Below, piece after piece: positions 3,864 to 17,832 of a stretch of DNA of 64,000 bases. This DNA is from a virus, in IMG/VR virus record IMGVR_UViG_3300021399_000152, positions 1 to 64,000 of that record; one strand, given 5' to 3'. The position numbers and the translations under genes are program-made. Under the pieces are notes generated by a model that saw only the letters and a list, made by a program, of their open reading frames with translations, was not told where the DNA came from and did no database searches. Positions within the stretch are counted from its first letter, which is position 1. Every line of letters starts with the position of its first letter.

Positions 3864-4165
3864 AACATGCAATTATTGTATCGCTGCTTATTATTCTCAC
3901 TTTTTGTCTTGTGGGATGCTCGCAAAATGATACTCCGATGCACGCAAATGATATGTTTAAACCGCTCGAAAGATATGAATCAATCATGGGCGACTACGGA
4001 TACACATATATCGTGAAAGATGTGGATACAAATGTGTGCTATATCATTTGCTCAAAGGATGGAAAGTGGAGCTTGTGTCCTTACTATGTGATCAATGATG
4101 ACGGCAAGCCTGAGATTGCTGTTTATGGGGTGAATTATTATGCGAAAGATTCCGACCCTGTTTAA
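3860..4165 (+). CDS. putative lipoprotein
   Basis: Signal peptide plus lipobox (LVGC|S) at N-terminus. Confidence 0.55.
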   Translation: MKHAIIVSLLIILTFCLVGCSQNDTPMHANDMFKPLERYESIMGDYGYTYIVKDVDTNVCYIICSKDGKWSLCPYYVINDDGKPEIAVYGVNYYAKDSDPV

Positions 4166-4751
4166 ACGAACCTTTGATGACCACAATGTTGTAAGCATTT
4201 CACCTGAGCTTACAAGCGAAGATCTCAGGTGTGTGCTTGATGGTAAAACTTATGCAACAGAAAAAGTCGATGGTGCGTGTTGCGCATTTTATAATGGTGT
4301 CTTTTATAAAAGATATGATGCAAAGAAAGGGAAAACACCTCCGCCCGATGCTATTGCATGCTGTGACCCGGATCCAATCACTGGACACTGGCCTCACTGG
4401 GTTCCTATAAAACGTGATGATCCATCATCTAAATGGTTTCTGGAGGCTCGTGACAATATTTGCGATGCTCCTTGGCTGACATATGAAGAACAATTGGGGC
4501 AAGGTACATATGAAGCTGTTGGACCACACTTCAATGGCAATCCTTATCATTTGCCAATCGATATGTTGATCAAGCATGGCTCCATTAAATTGAAGGATGT
4601 ACCCTTTACTTTTGAAGGAATTAAAGAATACCTGCGAACACATGAGATCGAAGGTATTGTGTTCTGGAATGATGATGGGCCTGTCTGCAAGATCAAGAGG
4701 ACTGACTTTGGTTTTGAGTGGCCCATGAAACAGGAGCAAAAAGATGGATGA
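4140..4751 (+). CDS. putative minimal nucleotidyltransferase of the ligase/capping superfamily (RNA/DNA ligase-like)
   Basis: Motif I 'KVDG' at K42 (TYATEKVDGACC), motif IV-like 'EGIVFW' and motif V-like 'VCKIKR' near the C-terminus; spacing consistent with covalent NTase fold. Function not verified. Confidence 0.4.
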   Translation: MRKIPTLFKRTFDDHNVVSISPELTSEDLRCVLDGKTYATEKVDGACCAFYNGVFYKRYDAKKGKTPPPDAIACCDPDPITGHWPHWVPIKRDDPSSKWFLEARDNICDAPWLTYEEQLGQGTYEAVGPHFNGNPYHLPIDMLIKHGSIKLKDVPFTFEGIKEYLRTHEIEGIVFWNDDGPVCKIKRTDFGFEWPMKQEQKDG

Positions 4752-5710: not shown

Positions 5711-5914
5711 ATGGAAATTGTACATTGCAAAGAATGTAAGTATGCCCTAATGACATACAGCGGCGAAGCAAAGTATTGCCTCTTCTGGCAGAATGCAATA
5801 GACGATGAAGATGGGCCGCTCCAAGCTCTGTATCTTGATGGTGACTTCTTCTGCGCAGGCGGAGAAAAGAAAGATGACTCTGTTAAACAAATTACTTACG
5901 AGGAGAAAGAGTAA
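5711..5914 (+). CDS. hypothetical Cys-containing protein
   Basis: ORF, CKECKY...C..FFCAGG. Confidence 0.45.
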   Translation: MEIVHCKECKYALMTYSGEAKYCLFWQNAIDDEDGPLQALYLDGDFFCAGGEKKDDSVKQITYEEKE

Positions 5915-6249
5915 TGTCTGTACATTTTATTCGTGTTAAAGGGTGCGATGACAATATTGCATGGATTAACGCGGACCAGATCGAATGCTTTTACTATAGC
6001 CCGAAACTTAACTCGACAGACATCCATATGATCGGCAACCAGAACGAAAACTGGACCATCGATGGTGATGCGACGGGGTATATCACTGCCAGAAAGCAAG
6101 GAACGTGGGTCAAGATGACTGGCTCAATGCCGCCCAAGTATCAAGGTCATTATGAATGCAGCGAATGCGGTTGGCATGGTGAAGCGTATGAGCGAAGAGA
6201 AACTGATTACGATTTCTGCCCGCATTGCGGTGCAATAATGTCAAAATAA
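5914..6249 (+). CDS. hypothetical protein with C-terminal zinc ribbon (CSECG...CPHCG)
   Basis: ORF, ATG overlapping previous stop. Confidence 0.5.
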   Translation: MSVHFIRVKGCDDNIAWINADQIECFYYSPKLNSTDIHMIGNQNENWTIDGDATGYITARKQGTWVKMTGSMPPKYQGHYECSECGWHGEAYERRETDYDFCPHCGAIMSK

Positions 6250-6258
6250 ACAGGTATT

Positions 6259-6390
6259 ATGCTGTGGCGGAATAGGTAGACGCAAATAAAAACACGAACG
6301 ACCCATCCCTTCGCTGAAATGTAGCTACAAGTAAGCAAGGTATGACGGACAAAAGGAATGGTCATGTCAGGTGCAAATCCTGACCAGCAT
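6259..6390 (+). ncRNA. tRNA-Leu-derived structured RNA with large internal insertion (family copy 1)
   Basis: 5' half 'ATGCTG-TG-GCGG-AATAGGTAG-ACGC' (acceptor and D-arm, tRNA-Leu-like), 3' half 'GTCAGG-TGCAAAT-CCTGAC-CAGCAT' (6-bp T-stem, T-loop with G55, acceptor 3' strand complementary to 5' end); ~85-nt insertion between. Confidence 0.5.
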
Positions 6391-6394
6391 ATTC

Positions 6395-6536
6395 ATGCGG
6401 TGGTGGAATAGGTAGACATGCAGAGGCCAGGCGACAGCGGCAAGAGTAAACACTTTTGGTATCGCCGCTATGGGTTCGAATCCCTCCGATGCGAGCAGTG
6501 CACGGCTCATGCGAGGTGCAAATCCTCGCCCGTATT
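6395..6536 (+). ncRNA. tRNA-Leu-derived structured RNA (family copy 2), contains a nested GGTTCGAATCC T-arm-like hairpin
   Basis: 5' 'ATGCGGTGGTGGAATAGGTAGACAT', 3' 'GCGAGGTGCAAATCCTCGCCCGTAT'; ends pair as 6-bp acceptor with one G-U. Confidence 0.45.
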
Positions 6537-6559
6537 CTTTTAACTACAGGAGAGAGAAA

Positions 6560-6742
6560 ATGCAGAAGGTTTGCTGTGAATATTGTGTACATAGGTTCGA
6601 TGGTGAGCATGATGAAAACCAGTGCGACGTGTTGCTGGAGAAAGCAAAGTGGCTCGTTCCAATGACGGTCGAGCTTGACTGGTTTTGTGCAAACTTTTGT
6701 GCCAAAGGAGAAGCCGATGGACAAACGTCAGATGGTAATTAA
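6560..6742 (+). CDS. Cys-rich small protein
   Basis: ATG 6560 after GGAGAGAGAAA; CCEYC...C..FCANFC. Confidence 0.45.
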   Translation: MQKVCCEYCVHRFDGEHDENQCDVLLEKAKWLVPMTVELDWFCANFCAKGEADGQTSDGN

Positions 6743-6950
6743 GGGGCTCGAACACTGCATTGCCTGCAGCTCAGGCAAAAAGGATACGTGCAATGGTTGC
6801 CCTTATGTTAAGTATTGTTTCAGAGAAAATAAGCCGAACCCCAGCAAGATACTGCGCGACGCTTTGGAGATGGTCAAAACTCCTCACGTCGTTGTCAGAT
6901 ATATCGACGAAGATAGTTGCGATGATTACTATGAGCCGTACAATGCTTGA
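6717..6950 (+). CDS. Cys-rich small protein
   Basis: ATG after AAAGGAGAAG; CIACSSGKKDTCNGCPYVKYC. Confidence 0.45.
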   Translation: MDKRQMVIKGLEHCIACSSGKKDTCNGCPYVKYCFRENKPNPSKILRDALEMVKTPHVVVRYIDEDSCDDYYEPYNA

Positions 6951-6983
6951 TTGCAAAGAGGGTAAACGGAGAGGTAAAGCCGG

Positions 6984-7208
6984 ATGACTGATAATGAAAA
7001 AGTTCTGATGGAACTCAAAAGAGATGTTCTGCGATTGCTGAAGCAGAACGAAGCAAAGCCTGTTACTTATTATATCAATGAATACACAGGACTTCCTGTG
7101 GCAACATGTCCAAGCTGTGGAAAATGTTTGAAACAATTTCAGCAAAGTTATGATGATGAGGAGACGAAGTTCTGCTCGTATTGTGGTCAGGCGGTGGTGT
7201 GGAAATGA
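6984..7208 (+). CDS. Lar-like (restriction-alleviation family) zinc-ribbon protein
   Basis: CPSCGKC...CSYCGQAVVWK* C-terminus, paralogous to 7581..7853. Confidence 0.45.
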   Translation: MTDNEKVLMELKRDVLRLLKQNEAKPVTYYINEYTGLPVATCPSCGKCLKQFQQSYDDEETKFCSYCGQAVVWK

Positions 7209-7402
7209 AAGTTGGCTATTGCGAGAAATGCAAATGTTACGAGCGTAGAAAATGGAACGGTTATTACATGCCGAAGAATTATCACCCAATTGGAATGAGC
7301 CACGGATATGGATATTGTAAATTGTATTGTATGCGATGCAGTGAAATCAAGCCATATATTTGCAGCGGAAGATTGCTGATTGATGAGCGGGACGGGCGGT
7401 GA
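7205..7402 (+). CDS. Cys-rich small protein
   Basis: ATG overlapping previous TGA; CEKCKCY...C..C. Confidence 0.4.
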   Translation: MKVGYCEKCKCYERRKWNGYYMPKNYHPIGMSHGYGYCKLYCMRCSEIKPYICSGRLLIDERDGR

Positions 7403-7408
7403 TGTGGA

Positions 7409-7589
7409 ATGGTTGATAGAGCTAAACTTTTGAAAGCGCTTTCGTGCTGTTCAAATAAGCTTGTGGATGATCCATCAGAGGATCCTCATTGCCCGGATGA
7501 TTGTCCATATATCAATTATATTTACTGCGAAAGCACAATGGCTGACGATGTTTTGGAATTGTTGAAGGAGTTGGAGTTTCATGTCTAAC
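7409..7589 (+). CDS. small Cys-rich protein (59 aa, below ORF-track cutoff)
   Basis: ATG 7409; 'LKALSCCSNK..PHCPDDCPY' pattern resembling 7840..8031 product. Confidence 0.3.
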
Positions 7590-7853
7590 GTAGAGAACAT
7601 CATAGCACAACTGCAAGAGCTTCATGGCTCAGAAGAAACGATGAACGTTTTGTCAGAAGCAATCAGCCTGTTGCGCAAGAGCGAGCCAGTCAAACCAATC
7701 GAAGAATACTACGCAGATGGCTGGCTGGAATATTATTGTGGCAAGTGCAGGCATTTTCTGACATATAGCCGTGATAACAAACGAGTTGAAACAGAGTATG
7801 CTGCATATTGTGCTAAATGTGGACAGGCGGTGGACTGGAATGAAGAAGAATGA
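7581..7853 (+). CDS. Lar-like zinc-ribbon protein
   Basis: CGKCRHF...YCAKCGQAVDWNEEE*, matching the Lar-family C-terminal pattern (C..CG.A..WN). Confidence 0.5.
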   Translation: MSNVENIIAQLQELHGSEETMNVLSEAISLLRKSEPVKPIEEYYADGWLEYYCGKCRHFLTYSRDNKRVETEYAAYCAKCGQAVDWNEEE

Positions 7854-8031
7854 ACTGATCGAAGCTTTGCGCCACTGTGCTGAGCCCGAAGAATGCTGCG
7901 AAGGTTGCCCACGAAATGATGGTGAGCAACACGCATATTTGTATGCAATAGGCTGTTCGTATAATCTGCTTCAAGATATCTATGAATACATGAAAGAAGA
8001 GGCAGCAAATGAAGTTCAGGAAAGGCAATAA
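7840..8031 (+). CDS. Cys-rich small protein
   Basis: ATG inside previous gene's last codons; CAEPEECCEGCP...GCSY. Confidence 0.4.
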   Translation: MKKNELIEALRHCAEPEECCEGCPRNDGEQHAYLYAIGCSYNLLQDIYEYMKEEAANEVQERQ

Positions 8032-8236
8032 AACAATAGCTATCATCAATGATACTTTGTACCCGAATGGTCGAGACACACAGGTTATGCCGACACTGTG
8101 TGTTGGAGAAGATGGGTGGCTCAATCATGTTGCAACATTCAGTACACCAGGGTACGCCAAGATGTTTGCTGATATGCTCGAAGAGTTCACATGCAAGATT
8201 ACAGTCATAAAAGAAGGAGAAGGATTCGAACCATGA
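8009..8236 (+). CDS. hypothetical protein
   Basis: ORF. Confidence 0.45.
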   Translation: MKFRKGNKTIAIINDTLYPNGRDTQVMPTLCVGEDGWLNHVATFSTPGYAKMFADMLEEFTCKITVIKEGEGFEP

Positions 8237-8499
8237 AGCCCGGTGATATTGTTCGCAATGATTGGACGATAGACAGCCCCGCTAAGTATACGATGTATCT
8301 CAAGCGAGGTCGTGTCGGTAAGTATGCAACATTTGATTGCCTGACGTTCGATGGTCGCACCATACATCATAGTGTTGATCATAACAGGCTCGTTGTTGTT
8401 GGACATATTGATGAATATGATGCACTCAAGAAAGCTTTGTTGCAACTGAAGGAGATTGATCAAAATGAAACTCAAGGAAGCACTACACACACTGGATAA
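8233..8499 (+). CDS. hypothetical protein
   Basis: ATG 8233 after AGGAGAAGG. Confidence 0.5.
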   Translation: MKPGDIVRNDWTIDSPAKYTMYLKRGRVGKYATFDCLTFDGRTIHHSVDHNRLVVVGHIDEYDALKKALLQLKEIDQNETQGSTTHTG

Positions 8500-8731
8500 C
8501 ATGAGAATGTTTGTAGATATTCGCGTTCATCAAGTTGTGAGCCCTGATCATTATGACATATACAGCGACCTCATTGACATGATTGATATGCTTGAGGAGT
8601 ATCTGACAAATGTTGATTGCGAAGCAGCAGAGCATGACGGCAAAGGTTGCCTCGGATATAGTTATCAAGGCGACGATGAGCCGATACAAACATGCAAGTA
8701 CTGCCAAAAGTATACCGGGAACATAGAATAA
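8465..8731 (+). CDS. hypothetical protein with C-terminal CKYCQ motif
   Basis: ATG after AAGGAG. Confidence 0.45.
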   Translation: MKLKEALHTLDNMRMFVDIRVHQVVSPDHYDIYSDLIDMIDMLEEYLTNVDCEAAEHDGKGCLGYSYQGDDEPIQTCKYCQKYTGNIE

Positions 8732-8746
8732 GGAGATATTGTTGAC

Positions 8747-9142
8747 ATGGTTTGGTTTTGGGTAATTATCTTTTCTGTGCCGCTGATCGCTATTGTTGCA
8801 CTAATATTCAGTGGCGTAGAAGTAAAGATTGAAGAGAATAATGGTTGGCTCGTCCGCTGGATGAAGTATCTCAAATGCGGTGCGATTCATGGGCATGCCT
8901 ACCATGCAGGTAGTTGCGCAAGATGCGGCAAGGCTATGCCAAAGCACAAGCACGAGCTCAAGCTTGATCAATATAATAAAGCATTGCTTGGGCTGAAATG
9001 CTGCACGGTCGTTGGTAATGACGCAAAGAAATGTGTGCTCTGTCCTTATATGAATGAAAAAGATTGCATCAATATAATGAAGAATGATGCGCTTGAGTCT
9101 ATGGCAACATTTGAAAACGGAGGTACGGAGAATGCCAAGTGA
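8747..9142 (+). CDS. membrane-anchored Cys/His-rich protein
   Basis: N-terminal TM helix, multiple Cys/His pairs. Confidence 0.5.
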   Translation: MVWFWVIIFSVPLIAIVALIFSGVEVKIEENNGWLVRWMKYLKCGAIHGHAYHAGSCARCGKAMPKHKHELKLDQYNKALLGLKCCTVVGNDAKKCVLCPYMNEKDCINIMKNDALESMATFENGGTENAK

Positions 9143-9401
9143 TAAACTGACATCGGAAGAAGTCATTAAACTTGTGTGCAATGTGATCGGCAGCATTCAT
9201 CCGGTTGGCGATAGTCGTATCGATGCGGACCACTTTGACAATCTGCTCATCATGATTGATCTTACAGATTGGTGTATTGCACAAATCCATCATGCAAGTC
9301 TGAATAAATACAGTGAAATGGGCAGTGTTCGGGCAATTGGCAAGAGAGCAAGTAAAGCTGAAAGAGACATCCATCTTGATACAGAGCAAGAAGAGGAATA
9401 A
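9132..9401 (+). CDS. hypothetical protein, paralog of 10059..10346
   Basis: ATG 9132 after GGAGGT; shares 'KLT.EEVIKLV.NV.G.I...' and 'L.IMI.LTDWCI..I' with the downstream paralog. Confidence 0.5.
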   Translation: MPSDKLTSEEVIKLVCNVIGSIHPVGDSRIDADHFDNLLIMIDLTDWCIAQIHHASLNKYSEMGSVRAIGKRASKAERDIHLDTEQEEE

Positions 9402-9405
9402 GAGT

Positions 9406-9780
9406 ATGGCATATTGTGATTATGGAGCATCCGTATACAAAAATGGTGTGCGTCAGCTTGATAAAGAAGACGCATTTTTGTTTGAGGATACAAGGTCGGC
9501 AGCTTATCATGGAGTAATGGGCGATGGTGACATCAGGGTCGCCTGTTACAAGCAATATCTTCCGCAGATCTTTAAGCGAACCAAGGATGGTTGCGAAGAG
9601 ATCCCGTTTGTTGATGAATATACGGACCGGCTCGAATTCGGGACCATCTATACAGAGTGCGATGGGTATCTGTTTGAATTTCGGCAAGGCGATATGACTT
9701 GCTTCGCAATGATGACAGAGCCAGACGGCACAAAGTGGACATGCAATTATGGTTACGGCATCGAAACGGAGGACGAATGA
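9406..9780 (+). CDS. hypothetical protein
   Basis: ATG 9406 after GAGGAATAAGAG. Confidence 0.5.
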   Translation: MAYCDYGASVYKNGVRQLDKEDAFLFEDTRSAAYHGVMGDGDIRVACYKQYLPQIFKRTKDGCEEIPFVDEYTDRLEFGTIYTECDGYLFEFRQGDMTCFAMMTEPDGTKWTCNYGYGIETEDE

Positions 9781-9983
9781 AAGCTTTTTGTGAAGAGTGT
9801 CGTGATGACGTTGAATATCAGGTCTTCGTTGAACAGACGACGACCAATGTACATGGCAAGACGTATACATTCACTAGTCAGACGCCTCGCTGCAAGAGGT
9901 GTGGGAGCTATGTCTATGTTCCAGATATTATAGACTCGAATCTTGAAGTTCTGTATCAGAAGGTGAACGAACAAAATGGTTGA
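9777..9983 (+). CDS. zinc-ribbon protein (CEEC...CKRCG)
   Basis: ATGA overlap with previous stop. Confidence 0.5.
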   Translation: MKAFCEECRDDVEYQVFVEQTTTNVHGKTYTFTSQTPRCKRCGSYVYVPDIIDSNLEVLYQKVNEQNG

Positions 9984-10058
9984 TAGTGTTTTGGTATTTT
10001 GTGGCGTCATCGTATATTGTATACTTTGCCTTTTCTGTGAAGAGTGGGGTGATGGCAC

Positions 10059-10346
10059 ATGGTAAGAGATAAATTGACAGCACAGGAAGTCATTAAGCTT
10101 GTGAGCAATGTGGTCGGCGAAATCGAACCAGATGAATACTGCGACCACGATGAGAACTCAAAACGGTATGAAAACCTTTGCATCATGATCAGGCTCACTG
10201 ACTGGTGCATCGACAATATCATCAGGGCAACATGGGGCGTCAGTTGCGAAATCAGTGAGCAGCGTATCAACGACGAAGCAGATAAAGCTTTGGAAGTATG
10301 GTACAAAACATTGCAAAAAGAGGTAGAAGCAAATGCCATATATTAA
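10059..10346 (+). CDS. hypothetical protein, paralog of 9132..9401
   Basis: Clear sequence similarity to 9132..9401 product. Confidence 0.5.
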   Translation: MVRDKLTAQEVIKLVSNVVGEIEPDEYCDHDENSKRYENLCIMIRLTDWCIDNIIRATWGVSCEISEQRINDEADKALEVWYKTLQKEVEANAIY

Positions 10347-10557
10347 AACGCCAGAGGGCGAAAAGTATGTTGATGGTTTTATCAACTGTGTATGTGCACC
10401 TGATGGCAAAACCTATGCATTGCAAGCAAGCATTGTTGAAGTCAAGGAAATCAAATGTAAAAACTGCGGTCACCCATTGAAACTGGAGTATGGAGAAGGA
10501 ACATGCGAGATGTGCGGTTCACATTACAGTACACATTTCGAAATTGTGCAATGTTGA
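10333..10557 (+). CDS. zinc-ribbon protein (CKNCGH...CEMCG)
   Basis: ORF. Confidence 0.5.
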   Translation: MPYIKTPEGEKYVDGFINCVCAPDGKTYALQASIVEVKEIKCKNCGHPLKLEYGEGTCEMCGSHYSTHFEIVQC

Positions 10558-10718
10558 CGAAATGTAAAGCATGGTATCGCAAGTATATTCTTCGCGAACC
10601 GGGCTCGGATTGCGAGCTTGAAAGCTGCACTTACAACCTTGATGGCAAATGCTACAAATACTCTTTCGAGTTGAGTGGTTGCCCGCTCGATGTCTTCTGT
10701 GGTGATGAATATGACTAA
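10551..10718 (+). CDS. small Cys-rich protein
   Basis: ATG overlapping previous stop. Confidence 0.35.
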   Translation: MLTKCKAWYRKYILREPGSDCELESCTYNLDGKCYKYSFELSGCPLDVFCGDEYD

Positions 10719-10893
10719 CATTGTGGCAACCTTTATCGGCAAAGATGGTTCGATGGGGTTCCGTACTGGCAAAGAATATCAGCTATGGTTCTTTGAAAAG
10801 AATGGAAAGTATTATCTCAGCAGGCGTTCAGAGAATGCGGTCGCAATACCGTATGACACAATGAACGCGGTCAAAAAGAATTGGAAACTATGA
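10708..10893 (+). CDS. hypothetical protein
   Basis: ATG overlapping previous stop. Confidence 0.4.
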   Translation, partial: NMTNIVATFIGKDGSMGFRTGKEYQLWFFEKNGKYYLSRRSENAVAIPYDTMNAVKKNWKL

Positions 10894-11118
10894 GCGATGG
10901 CGGAATAAGTAGACGCTAAAGTGATGCTTCTTATAGATCGGTTGGGTGTGGTTGAGAGGTAACCCGTAAAACAATAACCCTGAGTTCCCTCCTGCAAGCC
11001 AATGCAGTAGACCTGTCGAGGAGACGTAAGACTCAGCAAGTATCCATGGCACTCATTAAGAGGGAGAAACCTGAGCAGTAAAACTCCGATCATGTCTGGT
11101 GCAAATCCAGACCCGCTC
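10892..11118 (+). ncRNA. tRNA-Leu-derived structured RNA (family copy 3, ~190-nt insertion)
   Basis: 5' 'GAGCGATGGCGGAATAAGTAGACGC', 3' 'GTCTGGTGCAAATCCAGACCCGCTC'. Confidence 0.4.
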
Positions 11119-11317
11119 GTATGTTTATAACCGCACAGCACACTTTGGGAGACGGCGTAGTCGTAACTGCTGCTAACACGCATGGCTACGCAAAAACAGA
11201 TCGACCCAGGCTTCAGGCAGTTGTCGAGGTTGTAAAGCACCCAAAGGTTAGCATCTTTGGACTTAGTTTGACGGCAACAAAACCAACGATGGCAGCTGAC
11301 ACGTTGGTACACAGTAG

Positions 11318-11459
11318 AATGCGGTATCCAAATAGGTAATGGACTGTTTGTATAAAACCTATCCATCGTGGTTGCAAACGCGTTGGTGTGGGGTTGTGGG
11401 AACCTGCAAACAAGGAGACTTGCGCGAGTCACTGCGAGGTGCAAATCCTCGCCCGCATA
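11318..11459 (+). ncRNA. tRNA-Leu-derived structured RNA (family copy 4) with fully compensated D-stem
   Basis: 5' 'AATGCGG-TA-TCCA-AATAGGTAA-TGGA' (D-stem TCCA/TGGA replaces GCGG/ACGC while preserving pairing), 3' 'GCGAGGTGCAAATCCTCGCCCGCAT'. Confidence 0.45.
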
Positions 11460-11462
11460 TTC

Positions 11463-11577
11463 GTGTGGTGGTGGAATAGGTAGACACAGCCAGTATCGGT
11501 AGGGCGGCAGACACATCCATCCGAGCATGCAAAAACAGCAATCCTGCCAATGTCGGGTGCAAATCCTGACCCACATA
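11463..11577 (+). ncRNA. tRNA-Leu-derived structured RNA (family copy 5)
   Basis: 5' 'GTGTGGTGGTGGAATAGGTAGACAC' (D-stem GTGG/ACAC covaries), 3' 'GTCGGGTGCAAATCCTGACCCACAT'. Confidence 0.45.
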
Positions 11578-11797
11578 TGAATAGCGGCTGCTTTCTTCGG
11601 AGAGCAGGAAGGATGAAAACCACTTCCGCCGAGATGTCGGCAGCAGCAAACACTCATGCGTGAGTAAAGGCGAACATCATGGGGACGATCCATCTGGGCG
11701 GGCCGTAGTGCGTGGCATAATAGAATAACGGACGTGGCATGGATCAAAGCAGATCGTCGGGTGCAGGCTTGGTCTGCTATTTTTTAGGAGTAACTGT

Positions 11798-11983
11798 ATG
11801 GAAAACATATTGAGAGAGTGTTGCCAGATGCGACCAGAGATCAAGGTAGTTACTTATCCGGGGACTACATACGAAATGTTTGTGATCGTATGCCCAAAGT
11901 GCGGTATGAGAACACAACCATATCGCAACTTGACCAGCGCATACAATGAATGGAATCACCCGGAAGATGTACACTTGAATTAA
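11798..11983 (+). CDS. Lar-like zinc-ribbon protein
   Basis: CPKCGMR...SAYNEWNHPED. Confidence 0.45.
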   Translation: MENILRECCQMRPEIKVVTYPGTTYEMFVIVCPKCGMRTQPYRNLTSAYNEWNHPEDVHLN

Positions 11984-11996
11984 AGGAGACTCGTAC

Positions 11997-12194
11997 ATGA
12001 CGAATCAGGAAGCAATTGATACGATCAAAGCTCACTGGCCTCCTGCGAATTGCCCAGAGTTGCGAGAAGCTTTGATGATGGCACTCAGAGCCCTTGATGA
12101 TGAGGGCGATTCAAGACGGTGCTCATATTATGAGCACAACAAAACGAAACCATATTGCACACATGACTGCTATGGTTGTATGTGGTATGTTTAG
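11997..12194 (+). CDS. hypothetical Cys-containing protein
   Basis: ORF. Confidence 0.45.
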   Translation: MTNQEAIDTIKAHWPPANCPELREALMMALRALDDEGDSRRCSYYEHNKTKPYCTHDCYGCMWYV

Positions 12195-12213
12195 GAGGTT
12201 CAAATGCCCTGTA

Positions 12214-12347
12214 AAAGATGTGGATACGCAAAATATCGAATGATTCACTACAAAAATGGACATAGATGCTCATGTGTCAAGTGTGGATATTGCACTAAGC
12301 TCAAAGAGACTCCTGAACTTGCTATTGAAGCGTGGAACCAAAGATGA
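12214..12347 (+). CDS. Lar-like restriction-alleviation zinc-ribbon protein (44 aa)
   Basis: AGGAGG RBS; CKRCGY...CVKCGYC...PELAIEAWNQR* (Lar-family C-terminal AWN.R). Confidence 0.45.
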
Positions 12348-12350
12348 TTT

Positions 12351-12468
12351 AATGCGGTGGCGGAATAGGTAGACGCAAAAAATTAAGATGCCAAGACATG
12401 GCTAACGGTTGCCGGTGTTACGGTGCTTGGGAAAACCGGTCTGTCAGGTGCAAATCCTGGCCCGCATT
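12351..12468 (+). ncRNA. tRNA-Leu-derived structured RNA (family copy 6)
   Basis: 5' 'AATGCGGTGGCGGAATAGGTAGACGC', 3' 'GTCAGGTGCAAATCCTGGCCCGCATT'. Confidence 0.5.
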
Positions 12469-12494
12469 TATTTTAAAGAACTGAGGCGAGAAAA

Positions 12495-12671
12495 ATGGAT
12501 GATGTACCGCTGATTTCCCTTGAGGGCTACGCGTTAACACATGAAGAAGTAATGCAGATGTTACAAGAAGTTGCAGTTGAATTATTAGAAACCAGAAAAG
12601 AGCTTGGTTATATACATGAGGAAACAATGGGCGAATGGACAAGCTGGAGGGAGAGAGCGCATGAAGATTGA
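12495..12671 (+). CDS. hypothetical small protein
   Basis: Sub-threshold ORF with ATG 12495. Confidence 0.3.
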   Translation: MDDVPLISLEGYALTHEEVMQMLQEVAVELLETRKELGYIHEETMGEWTSWRERAHED

Positions 12672-13047
12672 CAGAGTTCTGGAACTTTTGAAGATCGAGC
12701 GTGAATGCGTGACTCGTCAGAGTCCGTGCAACGAAAAGTCGAAGTTGTGCGATCGGAATTGCGGAGAGTGCGATATTGCCCAGAATGATCTCGAAATCAT
12801 CGAGATGTACAACTTTGTAATTAGCATGATCGAGACACTGAACGGTGTATCGCAATGGATCAGCGTGAAGGACAGACTGCCAGAGAACAGTGACACGGTG
12901 CTGATTACACACAAGGGCGGCGTTTCATTCGGTTGGTATAACGGGAGATACTGGGAGCGCGGGGCAAGCACAAAGCATCGGGAGATACGTACTGTCTCTC
13001 ATTGGATGCCGCTTCCAGAACCGCCGAAGGAGGAACCATATGATTAA
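12661..13047 (+). CDS. DUF551-like protein
   Basis: 'WISVKDRLPEN...VSHWMPLPEPP' matches the W..V.DRLP signature; tandem paralog follows. Confidence 0.5.
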   Translation: MKIDRVLELLKIERECVTRQSPCNEKSKLCDRNCGECDIAQNDLEIIEMYNFVISMIETLNGVSQWISVKDRLPENSDTVLITHKGGVSFGWYNGRYWERGASTKHREIRTVSHWMPLPEPPKEEPYD

Positions 13048-13399
13048 GGATACTAACCCCAATCACTATAAGGTAGAAGGGGCAAACTTTATTGAGTATA
13101 TGAACGATCCAAAAATCAGCGGTTTCGGAAACTGGATGTTTGCAAACGGCTTCAATTCTGGTGTGTGGGCGAGTACGAATTGGATTTCGGTCAAGGACAG
13201 GCTGCCGGATGAAAAGCAAAGTCAAATTACTCATGATTTCGAGTATGTCCTGTGCGCTACTACGTTTGGCGACGTAAGAGCATACAAATTTGGAACGCCT
13301 ATTGGATGGAGCGAACCGCATTTTTGGCACGGCGCCGGAATGATGGACGAATACGTCACTCATTGGATGCCGTTCCCGGACATGCCTGTCCTAACTTAA
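13040..13399 (+). CDS. DUF551-like protein (tandem paralog)
   Basis: 'WISVKDRLPDEK...VTHWMPFPDMP'. Confidence 0.5.
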   Translation: MIKDTNPNHYKVEGANFIEYMNDPKISGFGNWMFANGFNSGVWASTNWISVKDRLPDEKQSQITHDFEYVLCATTFGDVRAYKFGTPIGWSEPHFWHGAGMMDEYVTHWMPFPDMPVLT

Positions 13400-13426
13400 A
13401 TAACACTTTAAATAGGAGTTTATATT

Positions 13427-13633
13427 ATGGATAATTGCCCTATCTGTAAGTTGAAAATTGGTGAAAAAACAGTTCAAAGTTCATTTGCACCGTCTCTGTG
13501 TTGGCTTGAAACAAGTCGAAATAAAAGCGGATATATCATTATGAAATTTGGATATGGTGACGATTTTGAACACATTTTCTATAGCCCACGGTATTGTCCA
13601 GAGTGCGGAAAGAAAAATGAGCCAGTTACTTAA
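13427..13633 (+). CDS. zinc-ribbon protein (CPICK...CPECGKK)
   Basis: ORF. Confidence 0.5.
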   Translation: MDNCPICKLKIGEKTVQSSFAPSLCWLETSRNKSGYIIMKFGYGDDFEHIFYSPRYCPECGKKNEPVT

Positions 13634-13659
13634 ATAACACTTTGAATGAGGTGCATGAA

Positions 13660-13812
13660 TGAACTGCGACAATTGCCGATTTTACCGTTGGTATTATGAC
13701 CGTTGCGAAAAGTGGAATTGCGAGGTAGACGCAAGAGAAGTCCATAACTGCTTCGAACAGCGAGAAACACCTGTAAGAGATGCAATGGTTAATAATAGAG
13801 CAGGAGTGTAAA
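13660..13812 (+). CDS. small Cys-rich protein (50 aa)
   Basis: Sub-threshold ORF, CDNCRFY...C..WNC. Confidence 0.3.
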
Positions 13813-13814
13813 CA

Positions 13815-13997
13815 ATGAAGCAAACGGAAGCATATGATCATATCATTAAAGAGTATTTGTCAAAGTGCAATGAAACTGGCTGTGATGGATGTATAGCAGA
13901 ATATTACTGCATTGAGAACCATCTCCGAACAGACCGCTTTCCGCAAAAAGATTGCCCTGAAAAACTTAAGGACTACCTTCGTCTGAAAAGGAGATAA
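13815..13997 (+). CDS. hypothetical Cys-containing protein
   Basis: ORF. Confidence 0.4.
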   Translation: MKQTEAYDHIIKEYLSKCNETGCDGCIAEYYCIENHLRTDRFPQKDCPEKLKDYLRLKRR

Positions 13998-13999
13998 GC

Positions 14000-14126
14000 A
14001 TGGTTGAATATTGCGAATGCGAATGGTGCGGAAGGCTTGTAATTTGTAGAAAAATAGATGGCAAAATGTTATGCGACCGATGTTTCGCAGAATACAAAAG
14101 CGAAACTAATGCGGTGGCGGAATAGG
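14000..14126 (+). CDS. small zinc-ribbon peptide (42 aa); stop codon lies inside tRNA-like copy 7
   Basis: AGGAGATAAGC-ATG; CECEWCG...CDRC; TAG is the 'AATAG' of the tRNA-like D-loop. Confidence 0.3.
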
Positions 14127-14247
14127 TAGACGCGCTACCGGGAGACAGCTACCATCGGGGAGGTAACGTTACCCTGAGAGAATAAGCTCATGCGACACGC
14201 GATCTGGGTAAAGGCTGTCATGTCAGGTGCAAATCCTGATCCGCATT
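14108..14247 (+). ncRNA. tRNA-Leu-derived structured RNA (family copy 7)
   Basis: 5' 'AATGCGGTGGCGGAATAGGTAGACGC', 3' 'GTCAGGTGCAAATCCTGATCCGCATT'; 7-bp acceptor pairing AATGCGG/CCGCATT. Confidence 0.5.
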
Positions 14248-14275
14248 CTATCTGAAATGAAAGGAAATTGATATT

Positions 14276-14833
14276 ATGGATCTTGGAGCTTATGCAAACA
14301 TTGAGTCTCTCAGACATATCATGACTGAAAACAATATCGATGTCCCGAGACTTCGCGGAGTTCGACTGATGTCCGAAGAACGTCCTGCCTCTGCCGAGAA
14401 TATTGAGCAGTACATTAGGCAGATATGGCTATATGAATGCGAGAGCGCATGTGAATCTGACTTTGTATATCATCCGACGTGCTTTGAATATAGCAGCAGA
14501 ACAAGCCAGCTCAGGCATAAGTATATTGAGTATAACGAAAACAGTGAACCAATTGATATCCGCTGGGAGAATGTTCACGGAGAAAAGCGGAAGCTGTTCA
14601 AATATCTCAGGAAGACTGTTGAGAAAAGAGTCCGCAAGAACCACGAAACATTTAATTCGTACTGTGGTCGCAATGATGTTCTGTACATTCATGCACGTAT
14701 CGGCGGTAACAACTGGGATTACTATTGCCGAGAAGTCAAGGACCAGCCGTGGTTCCTCGAGAAGGTTGATGATCCTTTTGACTCAACTTACTGTGATATC
14801 TATGCAAAGATCAAACCGAAACAGATTAATTGA
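14276..14833 (+). CDS. hypothetical protein (185 aa)
   Basis: ORF, RBS GGAAATTG. Confidence 0.55.
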   Translation: MDLGAYANIESLRHIMTENNIDVPRLRGVRLMSEERPASAENIEQYIRQIWLYECESACESDFVYHPTCFEYSSRTSQLRHKYIEYNENSEPIDIRWENVHGEKRKLFKYLRKTVEKRVRKNHETFNSYCGRNDVLYIHARIGGNNWDYYCREVKDQPWFLEKVDDPFDSTYCDIYAKIKPKQIN

Positions 14834-14902
14834 AAAAACGGGACCAAAAATGCTGCTGTTATTTCAATAAACAGTATCGAAAAATAATGAGGAGGTAAAC
14901 AG

Positions 14903-15865
14903 ATGATCAATTTGTTTACTCACACAGACCTTGATGGTCTGGGATGTTCTGTACTGATGAAGTTGTATGCTGCCAAGACATATGACACCATTGATGTACT
15001 GTATTGCGACTATGACAACATCAATCAGAAAGTGTCTGGTTTTCTTGACATTCTGTATGATGTTGAACAGAGATGGAACATCGAACAACAAGACCGCTAT
15101 ATCGTTATCTCGGATATAAGTATTAACGAAGAGACAGCGCAGAAGCTGGATGAATATTGCAGTACGCATCGACAGACAAAAGTCATTCTGCTTGACCATC
15201 ATAAGACTGCGGAATGGCTGAACTCAAAATATCCTTGGGCTCATGTTGTTCTTGACACCACGGTTTGCGGGACCTCTCTTGTGTATAAGGAATTCATCAA
15301 TCCGCAATTCAAAGATGCACTCGATGAGTTTGTTGAAGCTGTTTGTCTGTATGATACATGGCGATTTAACCAAGATGAGCTCTGCCTTTCTAAGCAATTG
15401 AACTATCTGATTACACTGTTTGGTAAAGAAAGGTTTGTGGATTACGCAATCAATTCCATCATCTTCGGTGATATCCATGAACAGCACAGCATCAGACCTC
15501 ACTTCGGTCTTTCAGCAGAGTTGGATAGTCTGGTCCGTGGCTACGACGAATCTGTAAATGAATACATTGGTCGGCGAGTTGCGGAAGCTCATGTTTATCA
15601 GTTGCCAGATGCTTATCGTGTGGCTGTCACAACGGCAAATAAGAATTTCTCAGAGATCGGGCACAAGCTGATTGATGCATATACTGATGCGGACTTCGCA
15701 ATCGTGCTGGACTTTGAAAATGGTTCGGCTCATCTTCGTGGCAACGATAAGTCGCCAGACCTTGGGCAATTTGCACGGGCACACGGCGGCGGTGGGCACC
15801 CGTATGCAGCAGCATTCCGCTTCAAAGTTGATGATCAAGTGTTGAACAAAGCTATGTTTGGGTGA
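14903..15865 (+). CDS. DHH-DHHA1 family phosphoesterase (NrnA/nanoRNase-like)
   Basis: Motif I 'HTDLDGLGCS', motif III 'LLDHHKT', DHHA1 'GGGGHPYAAAF'; RBS GAGGAGG. Confidence 0.75.
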   Translation: MINLFTHTDLDGLGCSVLMKLYAAKTYDTIDVLYCDYDNINQKVSGFLDILYDVEQRWNIEQQDRYIVISDISINEETAQKLDEYCSTHRQTKVILLDHHKTAEWLNSKYPWAHVVLDTTVCGTSLVYKEFINPQFKDALDEFVEAVCLYDTWRFNQDELCLSKQLNYLITLFGKERFVDYAINSIIFGDIHEQHSIRPHFGLSAELDSLVRGYDESVNEYIGRRVAEAHVYQLPDAYRVAVTTANKNFSEIGHKLIDAYTDADFAIVLDFENGSAHLRGNDKSPDLGQFARAHGGGGHPYAAAFRFKVDDQVLNKAMFG

Positions 15866-16047
15866 GGTTGCCATGATCAAGATAGGGAGACGTATGTACA
15901 ATACGAATGAGTTCAAATGGTTTTATTGTCCTCTGCTTAAAAAGCATAGAAAACAGTACTACCATTTCTTCTTTTGGTTCGGGAAGCATTGGTACATTTG
16001 TTGGCATAAGAAGAACCCGGTAGTAGATTGGTAATGAGGGTGATGCG

Positions 16048-16851
16048 ATGAGTTGGCGTACATGGGTTTACTTCAAACCGTTGTTTGGTGATCAGAAATA
16101 TATTGATGATTTCTATGAAAATGTACAGAAGATGCCAAATTGTGAATGTTATAATGGCGTATATGAATTTATGATAATCAATGGAAATGCTGAGCAAGCA
16201 TGCGCATATATCGCAAACGAGTTTAAAGGTGTAACATTTTATGGATATGCTGTATATGACACAACAGTTGGGGAGGATTATGCAAGAAATGTTATCTTTA
16301 ATCATAGAAATGGGCTAATATTTTATGGGGCAAAAGAGTATTCTTATGGTATGGACTACAATTTGATTAAAGATGATGTTCTTATTCGCGGTACCAAAAT
16401 GGATGAGTCTTCTATCAAGTTTCACAAAGACGAAGACCCTGACTTTAAAGCACCGCCCCCAGATAATTGTGATGAGTATGGCGGTTATTCTATTAATAAT
16501 GTTGATTGTCAGCACTGTGAATATTGGCAACCAGATAACTTTGGCTTTTGTGATAAAGTAGATAGATACACGGATGCATTGTTCAGCTGCTCTGAGAGTA
16601 AGTATCACAAAAAGGAAGCATCTGAAAAGCCTGTGCAACCAAATGAGTATCGGTTGAATGTGCAATATGATAAGAACGCTGATGCGCTGCATGTATTGTT
16701 TCCTAGCGATGGTACACGATCAATAGGTATTCCTGAAGAGCGGGATGATGGTGTCGTCGTAATGCGCAATATACCTTACCGCTATATCACAGGGGTCGTG
16801 ATCCCGAAGCTTCATGAATACATAGGAGATGAAAAGCATGATGAGCAATAA
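16048..16851 (+). CDS. hypothetical Cys-rich protein (267 aa)
   Basis: ORF. Confidence 0.55.
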   Translation: MSWRTWVYFKPLFGDQKYIDDFYENVQKMPNCECYNGVYEFMIINGNAEQACAYIANEFKGVTFYGYAVYDTTVGEDYARNVIFNHRNGLIFYGAKEYSYGMDYNLIKDDVLIRGTKMDESSIKFHKDEDPDFKAPPPDNCDEYGGYSINNVDCQHCEYWQPDNFGFCDKVDRYTDALFSCSESKYHKKEASEKPVQPNEYRLNVQYDKNADALHVLFPSDGTRSIGIPEERDDGVVVMRNIPYRYITGVVIPKLHEYIGDEKHDEQ

Positions 16852-17009
16852 ACTTCGTTGGTGTCTCAATTTTCTGCGAGCAGACCACCTCAGAAGACAT
16901 AAAAGGTGGCGCACTCGCAAGAAAAATATCAATCGATTGCATCGTATGAAAATAAAAGCTTTCAAGCGATGGGGTTGTTTCCCGTTGCCAAAGGAATGGG
17001 GATATTAAA

Positions 17010-17174: not shown

Positions 17175-17189
17175 TGCGACTGACCCGGT

Positions 17190-17247: not shown

Positions 17248-17248
17248 A

Positions 17249-17400: not shown

Positions 17401-17406
17401 TGAAAT

Positions 17407-17831: not shown

Positions 17832-17832
17832 T

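Follow-up and report, generated by a model that had tools for sequence, protein, structure and literature searches.

The window, a 64-kb stretch of viral DNA, carries on its + strand seven elements with tRNA-Leu-like ends and an insert, here called the cargo, between them. Seven + strand loci had been listed in the earlier note, and with coordinates set on a 7-bp acceptor stem all are present, within 1–3 nt of where it placed them. The features are:

6258..6391, + strand: E1, 134 nt, placed by sequence, motif matches and a constrained fold; acceptor 6258-6264/6385-6391 (UAUGCUG/CAGCAUA), then U8G9; D arm 6267-6283; cargo 6284-6365; T stem 6366-6371/6379-6384; T loop UGCAAAU 6372-6378
6394..6536, + strand: E2, 143 nt; D stem GUG/CAU; T stem GCGAGG/CCUCGC; T loop 6517-6523
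10891..11119, + strand: E3, 229 nt, the longest window copy; 177-nt cargo; T loop 11100-11106
11318..11459, + strand: E4, 142 nt; U8A9; T stem GCGAGG/CCUCGC; T loop 11440-11446
11462..11577, + strand: E5, 116 nt; acceptor GUGUGG/CCACAU; D stem GUGG/ACAC; T loop 11558-11564
11763..11777, + strand: terminator-like hairpin and U run, ending the 0.9-kb stretch 10891-11790
12351..12468, + strand: E6, 118 nt; 7-bp acceptor AAUGCGG/CCGCAUU; T stem GUCAGG/CCUGGC; T loop 12449-12455
14108..14247, + strand: E7, 140 nt; acceptor AAUGCGG/CCGCAUU; T stem GUCAGG/CCUGAU; T loop 14228-14234
18653-18735, 20101-20174 and 60716-60792: canonical tRNAs Ser, Gln and Leu, with TTC T loops

E1/E2 and E4/E5 are tandem pairs with spacers of 2 nt each. 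The stretch 10891-11790 contains E3, E4 and E5, and its sole possible gene is a doubtful 72-aa ORF; an antisense 311-aa ORF (10812-11747) has no Pfam or PHROG family match and a junk-like translation. An RLIG1-type RNA ligase gene (4140-4751) lies 1.5 kb upstream of the elements, and the phage has an additional 58-nt anticodon-less tRNA with a normal T loop at 17190-17247. The motif GGTGCAAATCC occurs exactly seven times, all on the + strand. With up to one mismatch there are nine matches against 1.06 expected, a number reached in 0 of 100 shuffles, and the two additional ones lie on the – strand within giant ORFs. The D-arm motif GGAATAGGTAGAC (0–1 mismatch) is present in six of the seven copies, the exception being E4, whose D stem UCCA/UGGA is compensated in full. 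E3 is slightly degenerate, with the D loop AAUAAGUAG (A at G18) and a single A-C mismatch at acceptor pair 7-66. Neither an ARAGORN call nor an Rfam match was obtained for E1, and no antisense matches to the window were found. The MFE z-scores of most copies are unremarkable: for the six that were folded (E3 was left out), four lie between –0.08 and +0.44 and the others are –1.0 and –2.1 (E4, –2.07).

The common plan, a conserved frame (the chassis) that holds the cargo, starts with a 7-bp covarying acceptor stem, U8-G9 and a tRNA-Leu-type D arm; a short linker (median 6 nt) in place of the anticodon arm leads to the cargo, which is followed by A-U, a 6-bp T stem and the loop UGCAAAU. The cargo occupies the class II variable-arm position, and its closing helix stops 2 nt (A-U48) before the T stem, as seen in 53 of 109 constrained folds and in E7 (GACAGC/GCUGUC). 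In 114 elements defined by their D-arm and T-arm motifs only, seven of seven acceptor pairs form in 89 and six of seven in 18, compared to 7/7 in 4.9% of controls, and there are 59 distinct acceptor strands. In 105 cores, 97.0% of cells are paired, compared to 72.8% in shuffled and 35–44% in slid registers; 386 cells are changed on both sides (110 in shuffled cores), and the covariation score of 0.614, versus 0.146, was reached in 0 of 500 shuffles. The acceptor strands had been correctly described as covarying, but the stem is 7 bp long and not ~6, as 90 of 105 members have a first pair, which covaries (UA, AU, GC). All three helices (acceptor, D and T) covary across more than 100 distinct sequences, and the compensatory changes pointed out previously in the D stems (GCGG/ACGC, GTGG/ACAC and TCCA/TGGA), the T stems (GTCAGG/CCTGAC versus GCGAGG/CCTCGC) and the acceptors are all borne out. 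U8, A14, G19, U20 and A21 are invariant, G18 and A15 are conserved in at least 90% of members, and the T arm keeps U54, C56, A58 and G53-C61. These conserved D-arm and T-arm nucleotides should allow a tRNA elbow and an acceptor/T coaxial stack to form.

The covariation of all three helices supports the proposal that the elements are selected RNA structures and not decayed pseudogenes. Phages do integrate at tRNA genes and carry tRNA fragments, and an integrase adjoins tRNA-Gln in the window (20101-21537). A reading as decayed tRNA pseudogenes, recombination scars or DNA-level sites (att, homing targets) with no RNA function is nevertheless refuted in practice by covariation on this scale. The conserved tertiary-interaction nucleotides, and a Listeria gene that has its own promoter and terminator and is under purifying selection (below), weigh against it too, and we give it next to no credence.

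Derivation from a class II tRNA-Leu-type tRNA, also proposed before, is likewise supported. Canonical class II tRNA-Leu, including phage tRNA-Leu(UAA), share with the elements the 7-bp acceptor, U8, a near-identical D arm UGGCGGAAUAGGUAGACGC, a junction of the A15...U48 type and a helix that starts right before the T stem, and occur in the same tRNA-array neighbourhoods on the same strand. The elements differ in their 6-bp T stem, the T loop UGCAAAU (UGC in 65/70), the missing anticodon arm, a first pair that is mostly U-A or A-U and not G-C, and a discriminator that is not fixed, and tRNA models fail to recognise them. Canonical phage tRNA-Leu with the same 20-nt D arm are 81–84 nt long, with a 5-bp T stem and UUC. 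Position 55 is G in 7/7 window elements, whereas the canonical Gln, Ser and Leu tRNAs of the window have TTC, as previously noted. The invariance claimed for this loop holds within the window but not across the family: of 70 members found by the D arm only, 66 have G55 (65 UGC, 1 UGU), two have UUC, one UAC and one CGC.

tRNA-Leu genes are a classic site of group I introns in bacteria, and the tRNA-Leu-like ends and the nearby RNA ligase gene would suit intron-interrupted tRNA-Leu genes, self-spliced or spliced by enzymes (possibly the phage ligase), that give a decoding tRNA. This suggestion of the earlier note has to be abandoned as extremely improbable, since no anticodon arm can be reconstituted. 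ARAGORN, set to tolerate introns as long as 300 nt, makes no call in 109 of 111 elements; of its other two calls, one joins a real tRNA wrongly and the second is an odd tRNA-Val. Rfam gives neither an Intron_gpI nor any other match at E up to 1–10. Inserts go down to 8–30 nt with no anticodon stem-loop, relatives of 60–82 nt have no room for such an arm, and genuine tRNA-Leu with an identical D arm differ from the elements in their T arm.

As real genes, the seven loci belong to a large and apparently so far unannotated family of tRNA-shaped RNAs, which occurs in phages of Firmicutes and on some chromosomes. More than 150 distinct members were recovered from IMG/VR phage contigs and Bacillota prophages, and unannotated members are present in the cultured Bacillus phages phi3T, BUCT082, SBSphiJ1 and Goe27. 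The family has no match in Rfam 15, and the GenBank records of the cultured phages that have it do not annotate it, which supports a new small-RNA class. The restriction to phages that the earlier note had attached to this class does not hold, as four Listeria species share a syntenic chromosomal copy. Total length ranges from 60 to 251 nt and cargo length from 8 to 199 nt; the window inserts, measured from D stem to T stem, are 64–177 nt long, a correction of the 60–190 nt given before. Short members measure 60, 70, 75, 79 and 82 nt; some have only a 12–29-nt hairpin as cargo, and the 60-nt member (L306) has none.

The Listeria gene has its own promoter (TTGCAT-17-TATTAT), a ~15-nt leader and a terminator 6 nt past the acceptor, and lies directly downstream of azlC-azlD, a branched-chain amino acid exporter pair. 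In the four species the whole RNA, including the cargo, is near-invariant, while the leader, promoter spacer and terminator have diverged; the gene is under purifying selection, which is strong for the cargo. Compensatory changes are seen in two cargo classes, one of Bacillus phages (columns 80-112 and 90-105) and that of E7, where a hairpin is CGGGG/CCCUG or CGGAG/CUCCG. The cargos of 114 elements fall into 78 classes. In 100 element pairs the chassis is at least 94% common and the cargo unrelated, and 21 pairs have one cargo class with at least three acceptor positions different. phi3T and BUCT082 differ in the cargo that they carry at one and the same locus, and the phi3T cargo class is common to lytic SPO1-like phages. 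The E2 cargo, with a nested hairpin GGGUUCGAAUCCC that resembles a T arm, is homologous to that of two other members (L009 and L118), whose acceptor differs (AGGUGG vs AUGCGG), and the E7 cargo class is also found on chassis with different acceptors (L103, L250, L251, L252 and L253). By these comparisons, the RNAs are modular, with chassis and cargo recombining independently. No motif common to all cargos was found, and thus no common target can be proposed.

Our preferred explanation, held tentatively, is that the elements are one large family of non-decoding tRNA-like RNAs, matured as tRNAs are and consisting of a scaffold and an effector. They would be transcribed within phage operons or tRNA arrays or, in Listeria, from their own promoter. 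Host tRNA machinery would then excise them, RNase P making the 5′ end and RNase Z cutting after the discriminator. Since CCA is almost never encoded (4/109 elements; position 74 is U in 56%), it would be added after cleavage; in B. subtilis, transcripts of tRNA genes that lack CCA mature through RNase P, RNase Z and subsequent CCA addition (PMC1874595). As the anticodon arm is missing, decoding would be excluded, and EF-Tu and the ribosome may be further barred by the 13-bp (7+6) acceptor/T branch and by G55, which replaces the universal U/pseudouridine 55. In this view the chassis would be a naturally occurring tRNA scaffold, giving exact ends and stability, and the cargo would be the effector, with a factor of the host or the phage as its probable binding partner.

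An engineered tRNA scaffold ascribed to Ponchon and Dardel (2007) reportedly holds a chosen structured RNA within a tRNA body and is processed and stabilised as a tRNA. It is artificial and takes up its cargo within a normal tRNA's anticodon stem, whereas the elements are natural, with the anticodon arm deleted and the cargo at the variable-arm position. In tmRNA, which RNase P processes, the two ends together make up a tRNA-like domain of acceptor and T arm with an analogue of the D loop, and a large structured domain occupies the anticodon-arm site (PMC3985003). ARAGORN called no tmRNA in the window, and the elements differ in having no G3-U70 pair, a full D arm and a cargo of only 8–199 nt that is unrelated between members; a conserved pseudoknot set or tag frame is not known in them.

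Genomic context allows a cis-acting role to be weighed against the scaffold. The window elements lie between same-strand ORFs of one long early-region operon, promoter-like sites are no more frequent than in shuffles (17 vs a mean of 18.8) with none directly upstream of any element, and Lactobacillaceae prophages have elements between a late regulator and HNH/terminase genes. All this would fit sites at which RNase P and RNase Z split operon transcripts into segments of differing stability and release a functionless RNA. Such punctuation is unlikely: the Listeria members stand alone with promoter and terminator and are kept in four species, many members lie inside pure tRNA arrays, and the conserved covarying cargo, G55 and the 6-bp T stem are left unexplained. 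A canonical tRNA is found within 500 nt of 50 of 129 elements, and the nearest tRNA is on the strand of the element in 62 of 62 cases.

A less probable alternative to the scaffold reading, though one of some weight, places the activity in the chassis. As a tRNA mimic or decoy, it would bind a protein that recognises the tRNA elbow and acceptor and would not itself be consumed, and the cargo would only tune it or be tolerated. Such a protein could be LeuRS, an immune nuclease or toxin directed at tRNA, RNase P or Z, the CCA-adding enzyme or a partner specific to the elements. The acceptor and T stems vary freely, while the D-arm sequence and the whole T loop UGCAAAU show far stronger conservation than their counterparts in canonical tRNA-Leu from this phage collection; because the D and T loops are more constrained in sequence than in real tRNAs, a sequence-specific partner of the chassis is suggested. 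The cargo-less member shows that a chassis can persist by itself, in better agreement with a chassis function than with a pure scaffold role, and the hairpin-only members point the same way. So does the 58-nt anticodon-less tRNA, and the RLIG1-type ligase hints that RNA damage, possibly of tRNA, matters to the window phage. Both the anticodon and the variable arm of tRNA-Leu are dispensable for E. coli LeuRS. However, the discriminator is A in only 52% of elements (U73 in 31%), though A73 is the key LeuRS determinant, this ligase is near elements in just one further locus, and no protein gene co-occurs consistently within 3.5 kb. The strong selection on the Listeria cargo and the compensated cargo helices also favour a functional cargo.

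The UGC/UGU loop also occurs in the non-proteinogenic tRNA-Gly (peptidoglycan tRNAs) of staphylococci, also Firmicutes, which among bacterial tRNAs kept out of translation are the only ones to have been studied well. These have TGC or TGT in the T loop and bind EF-Tu and the ribosome poorly (PMC7826273); with UUC replaced, pseudouridine 55 is absent. Their weak EF-Tu binding has been attributed to T-stem base pairs, which is why G55 is given above only as a possible contributor. They have a full cloverleaf with an anticodon, receive their amino acid from GlyRS and serve Fem transferases, whereas the elements have no anticodon arm and their charging looks unlikely. A role as charged RNAs that act as non-ribosomal aminoacyl donors or charging sensors, like these tRNA-Gly or B. 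cereus tRNA-Other, could draw on the Leu-type D arm and on the Listeria copy right after azlC-azlD. We consider it very unlikely, as neither acceptor (59 variants) nor discriminator is conserved, the Listeria copy has U73, and no aminoacyl-tRNA-dependent transferase was seen near elements.

The ends of the Y RNA YrlA form a Ro-binding stem and its tRNA-like part is internal, a topology opposite to that of the elements, which have no RF02553 match. YrlA is a bacterial non-coding RNA with a tRNA-like module that occurs in phages too (PMC4201824). tRNA-Sec departs from the 7/5 rule with a 13-bp acceptor/T branch, and both bacteria and phages have allo-tRNAs with 8/4 and 9/3 branches, some of which may be non-translating (PMC5389517). 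The elements have a 7/6 branch, absent from the list in that study, and no Rfam tRNA-Sec match; those RNAs keep their anticodon arms. The T4 stable RNA species 1 and 2 (rnaC and rnaD), 119–139 nt long, lie at the end of the phage tRNA cluster (PMC3014915). Compared by eye only, they showed no noticeable sequence similarity to the elements; they come from a proteobacterial phage, have a normal UUCGAAU T loop with a 5-bp stem and no evident Leu-type D arm, and are not known to form a large family. The 3′ end of rnaC has a canonical T arm followed by an acceptor-like strand.

Seven + strand loci that an earlier note had named as tRNA-Leu-derived structured RNAs are all there in the window sequence. 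Numbered in order of position, and with a 7-bp acceptor, they lie as follows.

6258-6391, + strand, element E1
6394-6536, + strand, element E2
10891-11119, + strand, element E3
11318-11459, + strand, element E4
11462-11577, + strand, element E5
12351-12468, + strand, element E6
14108-14247, + strand, element E7

The sequence GGTGCAAATCC occurs exactly seven times on the + strand of the window. With up to one mismatch it is matched nine times against 1.06 expected, a count reached in 0 of 100 shuffles, and the two additional one-mismatch matches lie on the - strand within giant ORFs. A Leu-type D-arm motif with 0-1 mismatch stands beside six of the seven copies. As the earlier note had claimed, the D-stem change in E4 is compensatory (UCCA/UGGA, with pairing fully restored), and the canonical tRNAs of the window have UUC in their T loops, whereas the elements have UGC. 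The only ARAGORN calls in the window are tRNA-Ser, tRNA-Gln and tRNA-Leu, to which Rfam contributes an odd tRNA match at 17190-17247. Neither tool calls any of E1-E7, and for Rfam this holds even at E up to 10. MFE stability is uninformative for most of the window copies. E1/E2 and E4/E5 are tandem pairs with spacers of 2 nt that resemble tRNA dimers, and a terminator at 11763-11777 closes the E3-E5 stretch. Megablast of positions 6000-14500 against 50,697 phage records found no close phage relatives.

Two + strand stretches without a supported gene, 11119-11317 and 11578-11790, lie within or beside the E3-E5 cluster and may contain more RNAs. A 72-aa ORF in the first (11121-11339) has a weak PHROG match (E 5e-4) and no Shine-Dalgarno sequence, and its stop codon falls inside the E4 D loop; the second has a terminator at its end. 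A 311-aa ORF antisense to E3-E5 was dismissed as a gene because it has no Pfam or PHROG match and its translation is junk-like.

Family members were collected by motif-anchored detection with explicit controls instead of a covariance model, because a variable insert of 8-199 nt in a multiloop cannot be fitted by a single model. An IMG/VR scan with a T-arm pattern, a second scan with a D-arm 20-mer and a scan of GTDB genomes each gave at least 120 loci. We defined 114 distinct elements by their D-arm and T-arm motifs alone, which leaves the acceptor as a test independent of the collection. The acceptor is paired at 7/7 positions in 89 of the 114 elements and at 6/7 in another 18, with 59 distinct acceptor strands among them; dealing the 3' strands out among the elements results in 7/7 pairing in 4.9%. 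Across 105 family cores, 97.0% of cells are paired compared to 72.8% in shuffled sets and 35-44% in slid registers, and changes on both sides of a pair are seen in 386 cells versus 110 after shuffling. The covariation score of these cores is 0.614 compared to 0.146, a value reached in 0 of 500 shuffles. In alignment A1, two of the window rows are manual entries. The finding is genuine, widespread and not due to chance.

The aligned ends give the layout, from 5' to 3', as a 7-bp acceptor, U8 and G9, the D arm, a linker, the variable structured insert (the cargo), Y-C-A-U, the T arm and the 3' strand of the acceptor. In this alignment the D stem is GCG(G)/(A)CGC with the loop AAUAGGUAG, and the 6-bp T stem is G-Y-S-N-G-G/C-C-N-S-R-Y with the loop UGCAAAU. 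Standard tRNA numbering fits columns 1-21. U8, A14, G19, U20 and A21 are invariant in the 105 cores, and G18 and A15 are at least 90% conserved. In the T arm U54, C56, A58 and G53-C61 are retained, so that the tRNA rule is broken at position 55 only. In these cores the D stem is 97.8% paired and the 6-bp T stem 99.4% paired; the search motifs constrained the D stem and part of the T stem. Both-side changes are seen in six of the seven acceptor pairs. The first acceptor pair covaries (UA 35, AU 28, GC 20) and is thus a real pair, not a pairing of position -1 with the discriminator. When the three chassis helices (acceptor, D arm and T arm) are enforced in constrained folds of 109 elements, a cargo helix ends exactly 2 nt (A-U) 5' of the T stem in 53 of them, and the linker on the 5' side is 6 nt long at the median. 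This puts the cargo where a class II tRNA has its variable arm, with no anticodon arm present. The structural reading of the earlier note was right.

A collection based on the D arm alone splits cleanly into two classes. One combines a 5-bp T stem with UUC and consists mostly of ordinary 81-84-nt tRNA-Leu, plus three longer sequences of 91-187 nt; the other has a 6-bp T stem and spans 60-251 nt (median 120). The T loop of the second class has UGC in 65 of 70 cases, the others being two UUC, one UAC, one CGC and one UGU. Loci L250 and L253 form a variant subfamily with the T loop UGAAAAU (C56 to A) on E7-type cargo, and in L123, L193 and L235 a UGCAAAU T arm is preceded by a D-arm-like CAAUAGUAGACGC without G18-G19. 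The family is therefore larger than the motif scans show.

A class II tRNA-Leu is the likely ancestor of the elements. They have in common with canonical tRNA the 7-bp acceptor formed from the 5' and 3' ends, the D arm and the core U8, A14, G18, G19 and A21, but canonical tRNA has a 5-bp T stem and U54-U55-C56-R57-A58 where the elements have 6 bp and U54-G55-C56 (65/70). RF00005 matches none of the elements, whether at gathering score or with E up to 10, and Rfam 15 as a whole gives no match on any element (window at gathering score, positions 5800-21000 at E up to 10, 50 related loci). The anticodon arm of canonical tRNA (5-bp stem, 7-nt loop) is absent, and ARAGORN is silent with or without introns allowed. 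The suggestion in the earlier note that the inserts are introns fails, since ARAGORN, when allowed introns of up to 300 nt (-i0,300), calls no gene in 109 of the 111 distinct elements. Most inserts are shorter than 100 nt, and Intron_gpI matches nothing in the window at E up to 10 and nothing in 20 loci at E up to 1. In members of 60-82 nt, just a linker or hairpin of 8-30 nt separates the D arm from the T arm. Those of 60 nt (L306, with only an 8-nt linker), 70 nt (L216), 75, 79 and 82 nt are too short for an anticodon arm, which eliminates a decoder of any kind; without that arm the elements cannot decode.

The nearest known counterparts of the family are class II tRNA-Leu, the staphylococcal non-proteinogenic tRNA-Gly, tmRNA, the T4 species 1 and 2 RNAs and the artificial tRNA scaffold, and it lacks defining features of most of them. 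The topology is that of tmRNA, but ARAGORN, whose tmRNA search looks for a tRNA-like domain with a tag peptide frame, makes no such call in the window and the G3-U70 identity pair (columns 3 and 59) is G-U in 1 of 105 cores. In the bacterial Y RNA YrlA the ends of the RNA form the Ro-binding stem, whereas in the elements they form an acceptor stem, and RF02553 has no match on any element. The 7+6 = 13 bp of the acceptor/T branch recall tRNA-Sec, whose branch is also 13 bp. tRNA-Sec and allo-tRNA combine a branch other than 7/5 with an anticodon arm and a long variable arm, whereas the 7/6 elements have no anticodon arm, and RF01852 does not match the elements. T4 species 1 RNA (rnaC), which like species 2 is a stable RNA of a phage tRNA cluster, is comparable in size (~140 nt) and location and has GGGUUCGAAUCCC near its 3' end, but neither homology nor a common D arm with the elements is evident. 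The staphylococcal non-proteinogenic tRNA-Gly shares the UGC/UGU T loop (66/70 elements; PMC7826273) but is a complete cloverleaf, aminoacylated and used by a transferase, whereas the elements have no anticodon arm.

A search of the full-text literature, with most subscription journals outside its scope, found no prior description of the family; there is a modest but real chance that one exists beyond the literature searched. As far as could be found, the elements are thus tRNA-like non-coding RNAs of an undescribed architecture, with a 7/6 branch, G55, no anticodon arm and cargo at the variable arm. If so, they are a large and easily recognised addition to the bacterial tRNA-like non-coding RNAs (tmRNA, YrlA, tRNA-Other, T4 species 1 and 2), and may help explain the stable RNAs of phage tRNA clusters, a question standing since T4 species 1 and 2. 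They would also be the first natural case of the tRNA scaffold principle from RNA engineering.

The inserts of E1-E7 are mutually unrelated. The 114 elements fall into 78 cargo classes, and 121 representative cargos were obtained among 160. Enrichment of k-mers in these 121 reveals nothing shared past the junctions (5' UAA, 3' YCAU), and blastn-short of the window cargos against the window gives just chance-level matches of 10-14 nt as possible antisense targets. Some cargos do recur: that of E2 in L009 and L118, and that of E7 in five IMG/VR contigs, on chassis with other acceptors and with compensated changes in its hairpin. One class is common to the temperate phage phi3T and the lytic SPO1-like phages SBSphiJ1, Goe27, BM-P1 and 010DV004, with compensatory pairs (RNAalifold) in the helix abutting the T stem. 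Conversely, the locus that follows the yonN-like HU gene has one cargo in phi3T and another in BUCT082. In 100 pairs of elements the chassis is at least 94% identical and the cargo unrelated, and 21 pairs have a common cargo with at least three acceptor positions different. The chassis and the cargo are therefore separable modules. These patterns show that the cargo is under selection.

A canonical tRNA lies within 500 nt of 50 of 129 phage elements, and within 100 nt of 23, and the nearest tRNA is on the strand of the element in 62 of 62 cases. Among the matches listed, the genome members are almost all from Bacillota (Bacillus, Listeria, Enterococcus, Weissella, Lactobacillaceae, Lachnospiraceae, Oscillospiraceae and Christensenella), with a single match in a MAG labelled Alistipes. 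Most adjoin prophage genes, e.g. terminase, portal, HNH, DNA methyltransferase and ThyX. No conserved protein partner emerged when the ORFs lying up to 3.5 kb from 125 elements were clustered: the clusters were all ordinary phage genes, namely terminase subunits, an HNH endonuclease and an ORF judged by eye to be similar to an ArpU-type late regulator. Other structured RNAs of Rfam occur nearby: drum RNA in L051 (230-335, ~115 nt past the element), int-alpA RNA beside a family member in L049 (585-653) and DUF3800-VIII RNA in phi3T (L242, 3863-3928, 1.2 kb downstream of the element). In seven cultured-phage GenBank records inspected the element is never annotated, and in three a "hypothetical protein" is laid over it; current annotation pipelines overlook these genes or put spurious calls over them.

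Four Listeria species carry the element on the chromosome at a syntenic position, with the gene order azlC, azlD, RNA, DUF1361. It has its own promoter (TTGCAT-17-TATTAT) with a leader of ~15 nt, and an intrinsic terminator lies 6 nt past the acceptor. The 130-nt RNA, including the cargo, is almost invariant across the four species, whereas the leader, the promoter spacer and the terminator have diverged; the terminator stem shows compensatory changes. This stand-alone gene contradicts the idea that the elements are pure cleavage signals punctuating long phage operon transcripts. The copy of Listeria sensu lato (L157, 4544-4673; L178, L215, L227) directly follows azlC-azlD, the branched-chain amino acid exporter pair. 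The location of a Leu-type tRNA-like RNA beside a leucine exporter is suggestive.

Of 109 elements, 4 encode CCA. A makes up 52% of the discriminators and U 31%, and position 74 is U in 56%. One third of the tRNA genes of B. subtilis lack CCA, and maturation of their transcripts involves RNase P, RNase Z, which cuts after the discriminator, and the addition of CCA (PMC1874595). We infer that the elements would be cut out as discrete, stable RNAs by the same tRNA-maturing enzymes, because the acceptor/T stack and the elbow, all that RNase P, RNase Z and CCA addition need, are present. A role as aminoacyl donor is weakened by the lack of a fixed discriminator and acceptor, and the variable discriminator argues against a single synthetase. 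In the staphylococcal non-proteinogenic tRNA-Gly the UGC T loop is the hallmark, pseudouridine 55 is absent and binding to EF-Tu and the ribosome is poor (PMC7826273).

Since the cargo is modular, selected and highly diverse, we favour a model of scaffold plus effector, in which the cargos might act, for example, as decoys or inhibitors of host defence or RNA-metabolism proteins. Alternatively the chassis itself may be functional, as a tRNA mimic or decoy, a reading favoured by the cargo-less 60-nt member and by a loop conservation exceeding that of real tRNAs; the scaffold-plus-effector model ranks only slightly above it. In its full form, which we put forward tentatively, an anticodon-less class II tRNA would serve in Firmicutes phages and some chromosomes as a natural modular display chassis, with cargos swapped by recombination at the chassis ends, matured by the host tRNA machinery and acting as host-specific RNA effectors. 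Such a chassis would be a hypervariable RNA counterpart of protein anti-defence loci. Because some members belong to tractable model systems, namely the B. subtilis phages phi3T and SBSphiJ and the chromosomes of Listeria, their expression, processing and charging and the phenotypes of deletions are directly testable.

The window phage has a second kind of anticodon-less tRNA, a 58-nt + strand gene at 17190-17247 with an acceptor, a D arm and a canonical GUUCGAAUC T arm. It has ~3 nt in place of the anticodon arm, scores 49 bits as Rfam tRNA and is not called by ARAGORN. Directly 3' of it, the + strand region 17248-17384 has no Rfam match and a predicted fold of -55.2 kcal/mol (z = -5.1, 0 of 200 shuffles) with a 12-bp closing stem, a multi-helix junction and a T-arm-like 6-bp hairpin (ACAAGG-UUCAAUU-CCUUGU). 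A further insert-bearing tRNA-like sequence, with ends GCGGGG...CCCGC and a canonical GGGGUUCGAUUCCCC T arm and likewise without an ARAGORN call, lies at ~2800-2890 in the SPO1-like tRNA cluster of SBSphiJ1 (L243).

An RLIG1-type 5'-3' RNA ligase (4140-4751, + strand; PF17720 1e-15, phrog_14301 7e-54) is encoded 1.5 kb upstream of E1 and may serve RNA repair in the window phage, possibly of tRNA. Tblastn with this ligase reveals just one other locus with a homologue near elements, L094, where a 49%-identical protein is encoded ~2.4 kb from two of them. A DHH/DHHA1 phosphoesterase gene (14903-15865, + strand) lies close to E7, and at an unrelated genome locus, L154, such a gene (6777-7631) ends 73 nt before an element, which may reflect linkage or mere chance. 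The RNA elements are interspersed in a long + strand run (6560-14100) of small cysteine-rich, zinc-ribbon-like ORFs of 40-150 aa, which includes two DUF551 proteins (12604-13047 and 13040-13399). The window phage is temperate and siphovirus-like, with an integrase at 20404-21537, just past tRNA-Gln. On the - strand, a 5803-aa ORF (42995-60406) adjoining the distal tail protein gene (Dit, 41844-42935) and other tail genes may encode an exceptionally long tape-measure protein.
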